DNA of 64,000 bases from Octopus vulgaris (taxonomy: Eukaryota): the NCBI GenBank assembly GCA_951406725.2, contig OX597814.1, forward strand, positions 141,360,001-141,424,000. Direction: 5' to 3'. The stretch's first letter is position 1, and each line of letters opens with the position of its first letter. A model generated the notes under the pieces. The model ran no database searches and was not told where the DNA came from. It was given only the letters and a program-made list of their open reading frames with translations. Positions 3,115-54,329 of the stretch are shown piece by piece. The translations under genes were made by a program, and so were the position numbers.

Positions 3115-4190
3115 CTTTTTTAAAAAACACAAATGAGCTATTGAACCTCTTACAATAATTACAAATTGAGGCGCTGAGCCTCTTATCAATCAAAAACGTT
3201 CAGAAAATATTCAACTAAGACCTCTTACTCTGCCTCTCCGATTACGTCTCTTGCCGCCTGCAGTCAATCCTGCAGTCACAAACCGGGGTCCCAAAAAAGA
3301 TAATTATATTCTTCCTTAGTAAAGGAACCCATCGCCCTATAGAAGTAGTTTTCCTCCACGACCTCCGCAGCTACCTGTGGAGGCCAATCCGCGCTATCAA
3401 TGCAGATCAGGACAACCTGTTCCCGACCTTCAAGATTCCTCACAAAGTTCTCTACGGCCCCTCCATCAAGAAAGATTACAAATTCCTCGATTATTACACT
3501 GGGAGGAGCCACAGTTTCCTCCGTCGGTGGCACAATTCCCTCCGACGAGGTTTCGGGACATGCCGGCAGTGTATTGCTAACCACTAGCATTGTTCCATTC
3601 ATTTTCTTCTTTTTTCTTGTCTTTGATACGGGAGGGGGTGGTTCCTTCGCTTTAACCGGAGGATCATCGGTCCCTCCCGCAGCTTTAGGGTCCTTCGGTG
3701 AGTAACCATTTTGCCCACCTTCTTCCCCCCCTTTTTTCCGGGGAGGTCTCTACCTCCCTGACTACCTCCATCTCTCCCTCCGGAGGAGGAGGGATCTCTT
3801 TCACAACCAACTGTTCCAGGACCCTACTCTGGTCCTGGGGACACTTCTTTTTGATGCGGCCCGGTTCCAGGCACTAGTGACACTTGGGAGAGGGGGTCCC
3901 TCAAGAATCACCGGGTACCTGCAACCGGCCATTTTCAAAAAATCTGGAATAACCAGATTCTTGGCTGATTGGGTCCACAGGGTCAAAACAGCTTTTGATC
4001 CAGCCTAATCAGCCGCCGGCAAAATTTTAGCATTAAGCAGCTTGGATCCGCTGCTACCCAGACCCCGACGGATAGTGTCCTGTATCCACTCGGTTTCTAT
4101 CCCGGGTGGCAACTCGTAGACCCAAGGGCACGAAACAGTCACAAAAATAGCACAATTTTAGGAGGGATACGCCCCCAAAACACACTTCTC
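3115..4190 (-). mobile_element. Tx1/L1-like retroelement remnant encoding only a decayed ORF1 (zinc knuckle)
   Basis: Minus-strand frames read WVYELPPGIETEWI...IPDFLKMAGCRYPVILEG/PKCH*CLEPGRIKKKCP (Tx1-type ORF1 with a degenerate CCHC knuckle), then the acidic C-terminal ORF 3602-3276. GC-richer than the flanks. Confidence 0.65.
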
Positions 4191-35533: not shown

Positions 35534-35644
35534 ACACACGCATGCACACACATATATATATATACATTGACCGCTAAATCGACAAGTTTTTTTTATTCTC
35601 TCGCTTTTATTTCCTCGTGTTACTTTCTGTTGAAAAACGTAGGC

Positions 35645-36062
35645 ATTGAGTGTTATACAAATGCCAGAACTGGCCACCATTGCATTGTACCAAAGGTACC
35701 GTCCACTCCATCTAAATTCAGGACTAGGTATTGCAATAGTCTAGGGTTCAAAGGTTCACAGCTTTTCAATGCCCTGCCACAAAAATTAAGAAATATGCAT
35801 AAGGTGGAAGTAGATGTCTTCAAAAAGGAACTAGACACCCTCCTCTCCGCAATACCGGATGAACCAACAGCCCGACAAGAGGTACAAATGAGGGCTGCGG
35901 AATAAAACTCAATTATACATCAAATGTACCAACAGCTGGGTAAAAGGTACATACAAGAGTTGGGATGTGAAACATCCAGACTGCGGAAGTCGGAAAGACC
36001 ATGGTGGTGTTCCAGCGTGACCACAGCTGCATGGCTGAAACGACTAAAAGAGTAAAAAGAGT
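35645..36062 (+). mobile_element. CR1-like LINE 3' end
   Basis: RTGHHCIVPKV...YCNSLGFKGSQLFNALPQKLRN...FKKELDTLLSAIPDEP; tail ggtggtgttccagcgtgaccacagctgcatggctgaaac then taaaagagtaaaaagagt. Confidence 0.85.
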
Positions 36063-46590: not shown

Positions 46591-46789
46591 CATATGTGGA
46601 CAGGTTACTAGTCAGAAACCGAGGACTGTGTGTATCACGTAAGGCTAGAGATGGAAACGATTACTTCTCTTCGCAGATACTAATCGGACACAGATAGTGT
46701 CGTTAGCCAGATGGAGTGGATGTCTTCCTGGGGCTATAAACAACAGTAGCATTGTCCCCTATGGGTCCTCCACATTTTGGCGGCAAATA

Positions 46790-46875
<86 letters not shown>

Positions 46876-51144: not shown

Positions 51145-51989
51145 TCTCCCTCTCTCTCACATTCTCCAAATATATATCCTTTTTTCCTCTCACTCGTTTA
51201 GCTCTCTTCCTGTACTAGAACCAATGTGTATCTAGTCTCTCTCTTTCCTTCTCTCTCACTTCCACTTACTCCCCTCCTCATTTGCTCCCTATTTCCATCC
51301 AACCACACCCTCAATCCAATACCTCAACGTTAACTGCCTATCCTCTCCCCTGCATACCTACCTCTCCCTCATCTTTGTCGCCCTCTCAATCTCCTCTCTG
51401 TCCCCTTCTCCTATCTGTCCCATTATCTACCTCAACTTTCCTGTCTGTCCCCTCACATTTACCCCGTCACCCCCGTTGGTCTCTTCCCTCTCCCAGCTTG
51501 CTCTTCTCCCCTCACCTACCCAAGTAATTCCCACTCTCTTTCCCTCATTCTCTCATCACACCTCTGTTCTCTCTATATTTGCACTCAAAAACCAACTGCA
51601 CACAATCGCAGCCACATACGGAAAATTACGAGAAATTGGAAGACCACAAACGTTGGATTGTTCTTGCGAGCCTGGGACGTCACAGAAAGCGATTCGCCAA
51701 ATAATTTAATTACAGCTGCCTTGAAGAGCAATGGTTTTTCCAGATCTGTGGCACAAATAGAGCAGAAGAAGAATGAGTTCATCCGATCTTATATGCTCGT
51801 ACGGCCATACTTGGAGAAACTGGACATCTGCCCGTGAGAAACGTCACACGGAAAGCAGTGGCAACAACGACACCAAAGATAAAAGGCTCAACAAGGAAGG
51901 AAACGAGAAAAGTGCGAACAACCACAGTCCCAACACCTCTCAAAGAAGCAATGTAGAAAAAGAAGAAACCAGCCGAAAGTCAAGTGAAA

Positions 51990-53312
51990 ATGGTTCTAAA
52001 GTATAAACCAAAATCAAACCCTCTCAGAGAAAAAGGTCTATCTGCAACTTCCACAAAAAAAGATGTCTGCTGGCATGAAGAGGGTGGGACAAACTGCTGC
52101 TTTGCGCATCCAGCGCTGGAGCAGAATCCATCACTCACCCGACAATGAAAGAAACAATCACACTTGGAGAATTCCATATCCCAGCACAAACCTGCAGAAA
52201 AGAAGGCCGGACAGAAGACTACACAGATGCAGTTCAAGCTGCAGCGGTTGAACAACAATATTTTTAAGCGTGGCACAAGAAATAGTGCACGGTTGTCATG
52301 GCTACAGACAAAGCTACAGACTGGGCCCAGTACTATTTGTGATGGCCCTCGCAGATATGCCCTCCGCGGTACAGTCAAGCAATCTGACCATTTATGCTGA
52401 CGGCACAAATGTATTGCAGGCAGTTAGGAACCCGGAGGACATCATAAAACTGCAGAAAGACCTGAATGACATCTACATAGGGGCTTAGAAAAATATCATG
52501 CGGTTCAATGCTATGAGATTTCAGGTACTCCGCTATCGGCCCAACACCAAGCTAAAGCCAGAATACACTGGACCAGAAGGTAATACAATCCCAGAGTCAG
52601 AGTCAGTGCGTGAGCTGGAGGTTCACATGAGCAATGATGCAACAATGTGCATATTACCAAGATGGCAACAATGTGCAGACGAGTGGCTGGCTGGATTCTG
52701 AGGACATTCAGAACCAGGAAAAGGGAGGCCCTGCAACTCCGATGGAGGACTTTTATTCTCAGCCGCTTGGACACTGCTCCCGACTATGGGCCCTAGAGAG
52801 TGTTAATCACACTGTGGAACACGAAGCAATCAACTGCCATTACACAAATAAGATCGACCCTATGCAAAATATGGGCTACTTGGAGAGGTTAAAGGAGCTG
52901 AGTCTCTATTCCCTGGAGAGAAGACGACAGAGATATGCGGTTATATATATTTGGAAGATCTTTAGCACTGCATCGTACCAAAGATCCCGTCTTCCCCATC
53001 TGAAATAAGTACACAGTACTTATTTTGGGTTTCAAGGTCCTGCAATTGTTCAATATCCTTTCAGGCAATCTTAGATATCTACATGCTGTTGATGTGGAAG
53101 TTTTCAAGGAACGACTGGACATGTTTCTATCAGAGATACCAGATGAACCCACACCGCGGCAGGAGACATAAAGAAGAGCAGCTCCGTCAAACTCTTTACT
53201 CCACCAAAAAAAAATAACGCAGCCAATATCAAACGGCTACAGGTGGTGCACCAGCATGACCTCAGCTCTGGGCTGAAACCAGTAAAGATAAAAGATAAAA
53301 GATAAAAAGATA
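51990..53312 (+). mobile_element. CR1-like LINE with internal deletions (ORF1 zinc-finger remnant, RT, 3' tail)
   Basis: VCWHEEGGTNCCFAHP (CCCH-like); VAQEIV...LGPVLFVMALADMP...IYADGT...LQKDLNDIY...MRFN; YLERLKELSLYSLERRRQRY; FKERLDMFLSEIPDEP; tail ggtggtgcaccagcatgacctcagctctgggctgaaac then (taaaaga)n. Confidence 0.88.
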
Positions 53313-53373
53313 TTCTCTATCTAAATTAAATGTCTTTTTCAAGTGATGTCTACTGTTTCATGTTTACTTTAAT

Positions 53374-53433
<60 letters not shown>

Positions 53434-53438
<5 letters not shown>

Positions 53439-54156
53439 TAGGTATGAAATCACAGGTGATACAAGTCCATATTTTTAAATGTCTTACTTTGAAAAATTGC
53501 ATTCGGTGGGATTAGTAAAGTTTTTGGTAGAAATGACTAATTTTGTCCCTCTTAGCGTGTGGCATGTATGTATAATAATGCCCTCTATATATAAATTAAT
53601 ATGTTCAATAAGAAAGAATTATTTTCGAAATTTTTTCTCTTATGAGGTTTTTCACGCTATCTACCCGATAATTTCTTGTTAAGTTTTCCTTATTAAGAAG
53701 TTGTCCTTAATTGCTAAATTTTTATTCCGAAAAAACTTTTCCTTTCCCGAAATGCAATTCGTAAAAGTCTGCCATTTACCGGATGTAATATATGTAAACT
53801 AACCCATGTGCGTCGTTGATGTTGGTCAGTTGGCTGCCCGGCTTTGGCGATGTAGGGTCGTTTATTTATGATACGTCCAGACTTGCTGATGAATACAGAG
53901 GTATGAAATCACAGGTGATACAAGTCCATATTTTTAAATGTCTTACTTTGAAAAATTGCATTCGGTGGGATTAGTAAAATTTTTGGTAGAAATGACTAAT
54001 TTTGTCCCTCTTAGCGTGTGGCATGTATGTATAATAATGCCCTCTATATATAAATTAATATGTTCAATAAGAAAGAATTATTTTCGAAATTTTTTCTCTT
54101 ATGAGGTTTTTCACGCTATCTACCCGATAATTTCTTGTTAAGTTTTCCTTAATTGC

Positions 54157-54160
<4 letters not shown>
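53434..54160 (+). mobile_element. Hammerhead-containing tandem element (retrozyme / non-autonomous Penelope-like), about 1.6 copies of a 459-bp unit
   Basis: 53440-53717 recurs at 53899-54160 (offset 459; the identical 67-aa ORFs at 53479 and 53938 confirm the period). The copies differ by one substitution and one ~17-bp indel. Flanked on both sides by (TA)n. Confidence 0.75.
53880..53926 (+). ncRNA. Type I hammerhead ribozyme (intact core)
   Basis: gacttg-CTGATGA-atac(agag)gtat-GAAA-tcac(ag)gtga-TA-caagtc. All conserved core nucleotides are present. Stems: I gacttg/caagtc, II atac/gtat, III tcac/gtga. Predicted cleavage after A53920 (AUA triplet). Confidence 0.9.
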
Positions 54161-54229
<69 letters not shown>

Positions 54230-54329
54230 GTGGTTCAAATATACAAAAGACAATGATAGGAGAGGGAGCAACAAAAAGTAGGCGTATAAGTTCATATATG
54301 TATATATACATTTATATACGTGTGTGTGT

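Follow-up and report, generated by a model that had tools for sequence, protein, structure and literature searches.

We analysed a 64,000-nt stretch of Octopus vulgaris DNA (contig OX597814.1, forward-strand positions 141,360,001 to 141,424,000), hereafter the window. As read from its sequence, it contains 1.58 units of a direct repeat, with a measured spacing of 459 nt, between two (TA)n target tracts, one on the 5' side (53377..53435) and one on the 3' side (54160..54217). All features of the insertion lie on the plus strand. Its 5' end is a truncated hammerhead at 53434..53467, with a cut predicted after 53461, and a complete type I hammerhead follows at 53880..53926, with cleavage predicted after 53920. 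The full 459-nt unit, taken from cleavage site to cleavage site, occupies 53462..53920 and is numbered here q1-q459, q1 being the base after the predicted cleavage site (53462). A partial second pass (53921..54160) ends at the position that we call site B and has a 17-nt microhomology deletion near its end. The unit also includes a conserved structured arm (53477..53777), in which q16-55 pairs with q274-316, q65-97 pairs with q193-204 and q206-244 forms the base of a hairpin. Copies of the family have two preferred 3' ends, site A (q132-141, 53593..53602, recurring at 54052-54061), where reverse transcription would start, and, second to it, site B (q255-264, 53716..53725).

The complete hammerhead comprises stem I (GACTTG/CAAGTC), the core CTGATGA, stem II (ATAC/GTAT) followed by GAAA, and helix III (ATCAC/GTGAT around a 2-nt AG loop), with AUA as the triplet, and reading the sequence bears out the preliminary description on this point. 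The upstream hammerhead begins inside the core at 53434. Its 459-nt spacing is as first described, but the core, earlier held to be lost, keeps its ATGA; the stem II 3' strand, GAAA, the whole of helix III, the cleavage triplet and the stem I 3' strand are retained as well. With the stem I 5' strand, C3-U4-G5 and the 4-nt loop II missing, this half-site can, as far as its sequence tells, be a substrate only and never an enzyme. Between the two passes there is one substitution, and the terminal pass has lost 17 nt between short direct repeats; so small a difference argues for a young insertion, as was first supposed. Likewise, the 459-nt monomer proposed between the two cleavage sites corresponds to the true unit of a family, cleavage itself being predicted.

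The window copy is an ordinary truncated insertion. It has one complete and one truncated ribozyme, where Li, Clavereau and Pollet (10.64898/2026.07.22.740005) define an 'active' retrozyme by two consecutive complete hammerheads, which arrays of a sister subfamily possess. Since only 3 of the 50 loci of its subfamily carry two complete ribozymes on one arm (and none carries more than two), we read the window copy as a 5'-truncated product rather than a source, and probably as a dead end. We doubt that it yields monomers.

As for the surroundings, a decayed element with an (AAAGAT)n tail, which we take to resemble the 3' end of a LINE, lies just upstream of the insertion at ~51700-53310, and a fragment similar to it is found near 35600-35900. 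On the minus strand, 3276-3749 holds a 157-aa open frame of ordinary composition and without a Pfam match, which may represent an exon or lie antisense to one.

Conservation and folding of the RNA

The preliminary description had anticipated a match to the Rfam hammerhead models, and this expectation failed: no hammerhead was returned at the gathering score in the whole window, nor at E<=10 in 53300-54300. Three hammerhead patterns searched genome-wide nevertheless gave 618, 306 and 1,129 matches (overlapping sets, which are not additive) against 0 for each reversed control, so the motif is not a chance occurrence. In an alignment of 17 variants, the catalytic core is invariant and 96.1% of cells pair, with 8 of 15 ribozyme pairs changed on both sides (5/6 in stem I, 3/4 in stem II). 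The covariation score is 0.544 versus 0.217 in shuffles, and 0/500 shuffles reach it; related sequences can outscore such shuffles without any structure, which is countered by controls with slid partners, where just 20-40% of cells pair. The 17 variants are a chosen set in which helix III was fixed by the search patterns, so its invariance in that alignment is circular; with a pattern that leaves helix III free, the 100 matches listed of 1,129 show it to be self-complementary and almost without variation. From these comparisons, we conclude that the ribozyme is under selection.

The remainder of the unit is constrained as well. The unit is 34% GC and, when circularised, has a minimum free energy (MFE) of -121.1 kcal/mol, compared with -86.9 +/- 5.3 kcal/mol for 60 dinucleotide shuffles; the longest stop-free frame on the circle is 67 aa, in keeping with the earlier view that no credible protein is encoded. 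In 14 full units, the conserved arm outside the ribozyme has 97.7% of its cells paired and double changes in 12 of 50 pairs, for a structure that was derived from the same alignment and from which we excluded the pairs of the ribozyme itself, weak helices and any pair in a column of poor alignment. The consensus fold did not reproduce a hairpin immediately ahead of site A that shows one double change. Taken together, ribozyme covariation, the kept arm, the stable fold of the circle and the lack of any frame above 67 aa indicate, at the level of comparative analysis, that the body outside the ribozyme is under structural selection and that selection acts on the RNA. Contigs from three presumed RNA runs and one unlabelled run covered 29, 16, 13 and 29 of 29 bins of the permuted unit without a pile-up of ends, in a comparison that had no silent control stretch and with contigs that cannot show cleavage, strand or circles.

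Folding predictions suggest that the ribozyme depends on its neighbours. In isolation, the MFE fold blocks the core in 17/17 variants, while co-folding of two strands through helix III leaves it free in 15/17. Because energy models undervalue hammerhead cores, the predicted 'off' state of the monomer is weak evidence; the modelled switch nonetheless matches the double-hammerhead scheme, which permits multimers to cleave but keeps monomeric circles from doing so (as described in PMC4209133). Applied to the window, a co-fold of the downstream ribozyme with the upstream half-site adopts an active arrangement (-18.4 kcal/mol, versus -10.3 and -0.6 for the separate strands), and this is the predicted lowest-energy co-fold. 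It had been suggested that the upstream site could be cut by borrowing the downstream strand; help from downstream is workable in the co-fold, but it takes another form, the whole downstream ribozyme acting as enzyme on the upstream helix III and stem I strand. In these models, trans cleavage of the upstream site, amounting to half of a classical double hammerhead, is possible. A fold of the whole local transcript places both sites in inactive hairpins.

Two dispersed families and their integration footprint

In the genome (G000; 2.80 Gb, 227 contigs), a DNA search turned up 1,730 first-look candidates, of which 40 were scored; these yielded 145 matches, the long ones being 87-100% identical to the unit. 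Full units cut from tandem copies measure 457-497 nt. We collected mobile, dispersed copies at 88 distinct loci, with a median nearest-neighbour divergence of 1.0% for 56 of them. At the outset it had been allowed that the repeat might be a single-copy locus lacking a conserved core in its relatives, or an assembly artefact; dozens of scattered copies that end alike, and a core that is invariant in 17 variants, dispose of both objections, and the covarying copies in TA tracts that had been foreseen make up a retrozyme family. On the evidence of its sequence, the window copy adds a new member to the animal non-LTR retrozymes.

Tandem ribozymes number 2-31 at other loci, and a sister subfamily forms arrays of 3-31 units. 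The longest of these (L111 and L112; G000:C1:64639600-64655300) is a 15-kb array of 31 ribozymes in ~481-nt units with TA flanks, an inverted A arm and a B end. Only 10 of its 484 columns vary, and some of the variants are common to non-adjacent units in a roughly periodic manner, one occurring in 6 of 30 full units and another in 3. This pattern makes it unsafe to regard the array as a single rolling-circle product and, as far as sequences can tell, suggests that the array expanded later, was copied from a multimeric template or reflects assembly effects.

A 353-nt unit that is unrelated to the window's has a complete hammerhead of its own, which gave 439 exact matches against 0 in the control. 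This second family (L201-L230, L249, L250) is very young, mostly 97-100% identical, and has two fixed 3' ends ~45 nt apart. By these counts, ribozyme copies in the genome exceed a thousand and belong to at least two young families unrelated to each other. A truncated relative of the 353-nt unit, 74% identical, lies before a TA tract at 46628-46792 of the window.

To describe the mode of insertion, we compiled 151 arms at the 88 loci (28 + 38 + 22 from successive searches); duplicates, matches under 78% and the long array were excluded. Site A is the 3' end of 78 arms and site B that of 63, while 10 end elsewhere, so that 141/151 stop at A or B; the windows that define the two classes are broad (q105-145 and q225-268) to absorb indels, and most ends are at q141 or q264. 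The tail from A to B is thus ~123 nt. A TA tract adjoins 137 of the 151 arm 3' ends, while 5' ends are spread over the whole unit. Fifty-eight insertions consist of two inverted arms, and 45 of these combine one A end with one B end (2 are AA, 2 are BB and 9 have an unclassified arm), which departs from an even split with a binomial p=4e-10 (45/49 classified). Where arms meet, the junctions show microhomology or short inserts. Older subfamilies, ~72% identical, have the same two ends and follow the same rule of one end of each kind, which also holds in the loci examined of the 353-nt family. In one TA-flanked event (L114:2207-4264; G000:C1, ~70.535-70.538 Mb), an arm of the window family is joined by microhomology to ~3 copies of the 353-nt unit, and this direct switch suggests that both families probably use one enzyme.

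Some TA tracts have a more complex history. One TA region (L043:370-1870) contains three separate young insertions, namely the pseudo-LTR (pLTR) of a Penelope-like element (PLE) and one copy of each retrozyme family, which suggests that TA tracts are repeated landing pads; we rejected its reading as a retrozyme-PLE chimera, since the three insertions are separate and merely have TA tracts in common. Short inverted repeats of flanking host sequence stand beside the TA tract at three places (L111:1570-1620, the right flank of L006 and the left flank of L005), possibly as a by-product of double-strand priming or of a hairpin target.

The link to Penelope-like elements

Published accounts of PLEs describe two internal starts of reverse transcription, cutting and extension of both target strands and AT-rich targets (PMC11167929), together with a tail at one end and an inverted 5'-truncated copy (PMC8557442). 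The partial tandem, the one-sided tail, the inverted 5'-truncated copy and the TA target are all found in the retrozyme family. Since its two fixed ends, its TA targets and the one-of-each rule match the PLE pattern, we consider it very likely that the retrozyme is moved by a PLE, the footprint being observed and the enzyme deduced from it. The preliminary description had proposed mobilisation by a Penelope reverse transcriptase and remnants of it in the window. The mode of insertion agrees with the first part; as to the second, neither tblastn with four PLE proteins taken from this genome (E<0.01) nor a profile of 23 sequences (best E 0.52, compared with 4e-81 at a control locus) detected a PLE remnant in the window. 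Eleven of the window's 88 long frames were scanned against Pfam with no match, and the window copy has no ORF with the reverse transcriptase (RT) and GIY-YIG endonuclease that mark an autonomous PLE.

A search by GIY-YIG domain, in which 150 of 6,136 candidates were scored, identified a very young, intact PLE family (L154:44-5260, L151-L162) with a single 781-aa frame that combines RT and GIY-YIG. Its CX4CxxC linker fits the Neptune description in Craig 2021, an assignment made from the linker. The element has an unusual additional upstream ORF of 479 aa and a 504-nt pLTR, and several copies are >99% identical, others 91-98%. It ends at two sites ~35 nt apart, then TA, and both inverted copies (2/2) combine one tailed and one tail-less end. 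Read by eye, its pLTR contains a variant hammerhead-like motif with a core beginning TTGATAA, whereas the core and stems of the retrozyme ribozyme are complete and canonical. A second PLE family, too, is young, with a 217-nt match at 100% between loci.

Among the 150 candidates scored of 6,136, we found no PLE with a pLTR homologous to the unit, and the partner is therefore deduced from the footprint. By BLAST, neither of the two PLE families is homologous to the unit, and 40 stretches around GIY-YIG hits gave no similarity between it and the terminal regions of PLEs; two matches within these stretches are separate retrozyme relatives in their own TA tracts. No fetched retrozyme locus contains a direct retrozyme-PLE junction. 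A weak, AT-rich local match of 62 nt relates the unit to the 3' end of the young PLE, with a score of 36 that is reached by 0/100 crude shuffles and 1/184 genomic flanks, and it is absent for two older subfamilies.

The RNA template and the relation to known retrozymes

We could follow the template through the ribozyme junction. In a set of exact q1-26 matches that was not selected for crossing the junction, an intact junction precedes 67/67; the ten bases upstream of q1 are exact in 66/67, one arm starts six bases upstream, and no copy (0/67) starts at the predicted cleavage site. Over the whole footprint set, 1/151 arms starts within 4 nt of that site, no excess over a uniform spread. The junction being intact everywhere, a cleaved linear monomer is not the usual template. 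Passes within one arm differ at 105/15,806 sites and the two arms of an insertion at 155/15,211, while the divergence to other loci has a median of ~4%, a value that mixes subfamilies. In 24/85 same-arm and 26/99 two-arm comparisons, which are not independent of one another within a locus, the sequences are strictly closer than to every other sampled locus; an identical nearest neighbour exists for only 2 of 56 insertions. As these comparisons indicate, each insertion event copies one haplotype several times. Repeated copying of one haplotype combined with read-through of the junction favours a ligated circular monomer, which we hold to be the probable usual template. For the conjunction of a PLE-moved retrozyme with a circular monomer template our confidence is somewhat lower, and we still lean towards it.

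An uncleaved linear multimer from tandem source arrays, used by the same element with the same PLE machinery, would likewise read through the junction, and we regard this as a possible but clearly less probable template. The ribozyme would then matter little for insertion and may process transcripts or act later; indeed, an Anolis PLE is described as using mainly uncleaved RNA in vitro, with a dispensable hammerhead (PMC11167929). Suitable sources exist in the 3-31-unit arrays of the sister subfamily, whose nearly identical units would also give homogeneous daughters, and the variants common to non-adjacent units of the long array are consistent with a multimeric template or with expansion at a later time. 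Against such a template, the ribozyme has been kept by compensatory change across subfamilies ~28% apart, and many insertions have haplotypes common to all their own passes and absent from the 87 other loci (L113 differs at 0/414 within versus 1.2% to its nearest neighbour, L120 at 0/160 versus 2.5%), which argues for a bottleneck of one unit. Moreover, more than two complete ribozymes on an arm are absent from the 50 loci of the window's subfamily, and universal 5' truncation would be expected to shorten a purely linear lineage in each generation.

Two further explanations are much less probable. The RT might jump between cleaved linear monomers, leaving one at its 5' end and resuming at the 3' end of another, and so rebuild the junction without a circle. 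Template switching does occur, as in the insertion that joins the two unrelated families, and arm junctions carry microhomology or short inserts; such jumps should, however, leave stops and scars at the cleavage site, where the counts of starts and the exactness of the upstream bases show neither, and we consider this reading improbable. Nor do we give much credence to the idea that the repeat is the pLTR remnant of a 5'-truncated autonomous Penelope, a local DNA tandem duplication or an assembly artefact. Truncated PLE copies can consist of the pLTR only (10.64898/2026.07.22.740005), and the weak 62-nt match to the young PLE would fit such an origin. Yet upstream of the ribozyme every long copy runs into the same unit, as in a circular permutation, and never into an ORF; full units stand head-to-tail at many unlinked loci; the 40 PLE stretches gave no BLAST similarity; and a local artefact is excluded by the recurrence of the same ends in dozens of dispersed copies. 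For the family, this explanation is refuted.

Returning to the circular monomer, the following route may be proposed. A source copy with two or more ribozymes would be transcribed, and neighbouring ribozymes, as folding and the literature suggest, would join by way of their self-complementary helix III and, acting as a double hammerhead, cut out a monomer. This monomer would be ligated into a circle, in which the lone ribozyme would fold into its 'off' state. A PLE RT-endonuclease, presumed from the footprint, would then nick a (TA)n tract and start cDNA synthesis at the A/U-rich site A or B; often both target strands would be primed on a single haplotype, the first at one of these sites and the second at the other, as the observed footprint suggests. 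The RT would pass the ligated junction for zero to several rounds and stop at a random point, after which two arms would join by microhomology or a single arm would join the target, and here too the footprint is observed. At the window locus, reverse transcription would have started at B, with the terminal partial pass (53921..54160) presumably copied first, and stopped after 1.58 rounds inside the second ribozyme, leaving a copy from which a monomer could arise through trans cleavage alone.

The family resembles the metazoan non-LTR retrozymes described in PMC7229834, which are non-coding, low-GC tandem units with one type I hammerhead each, found as dimers to long arrays. In that work, which includes the mussel, Cervera and de la Pena (2020) proposed circular RNA as the RT template and PLEs as the likely mobiliser. 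Our units differ in being 457-497 nt long, at or just above the 150-450 bp range given there, and in occurring mostly as dispersed insertions in TA tracts, truncated and in many cases inverted, whose 3' ends are fixed at two sites, a trait that the available portion of PMC7229834 does not mention; cleavage and circles were demonstrated there, whereas here they are predicted from sequence and folds alone. Li et al. (2026) likewise tied retrozymes to PLEs, with dispersed monomers and clustered multimers. In the available text of their report, the link consists of co-occurrence and pLTR phylogeny, and local tandem amplification is discussed; here it consists of an integration signature, with no homologous pLTR found.

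With PLEs, as described for Poseidon of Anolis (PMC11167929) and for Neptune and Naiad (PMC8557442), the family has in common two RT starts with an optional tail, the use of both strands, AT-rich or (TA)n targets and partial tandems. It differs in having no ORF and in its tail of ~123 nt (~45 nt in the second family), compared with 30-40 nt in PLEs. Its short self-complementary helix III, pairing between tandem copies, recalls the dimeric hammerheads of PLEs and of newt satellite 2 (PMC4209133); being longer here (4-5 bp), it may also allow activity in the monomer. In the literature, we found no description of an octopus or cephalopod retrozyme, supplements and repeat databases being places that may list the family under another name; the main text of a 2026 octopus repeat annotation (PMC13282606) contains neither 'ribozyme' nor 'retrozyme'.

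The idea that animal retrozymes are moved by PLEs, and from RNA circles, dates from 2014-2020, and its support has been co-occurrence and sequence kinship. What the present analysis adds is an integration record that ties retrozymes to Penelope-type priming and provides unusually clear evidence on their movement. The mapped RT starts, the countable end rule and a young intact Neptune-like element together make the choice between circle and multimer testable in vitro, with a defined protein and defined RNAs. More tentatively, and with less confidence than in any of its preferred parts above, we suggest that the insertions may be a fossil record of rolling-circle, double-primed reverse transcription on circular ribozyme RNA, in which a dimeric Neptune-type protein would prime both strands of a nicked (TA)n tract on one RNA circle, one of its subunits working at site A and the other at site B, and in which several unrelated circles would compete for the enzyme. 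If true, the circRNA step proposed for animal retrozymes would gain direct genomic evidence, and the one-sided tail and the inverted arms of Penelope elements generally would also be explained.
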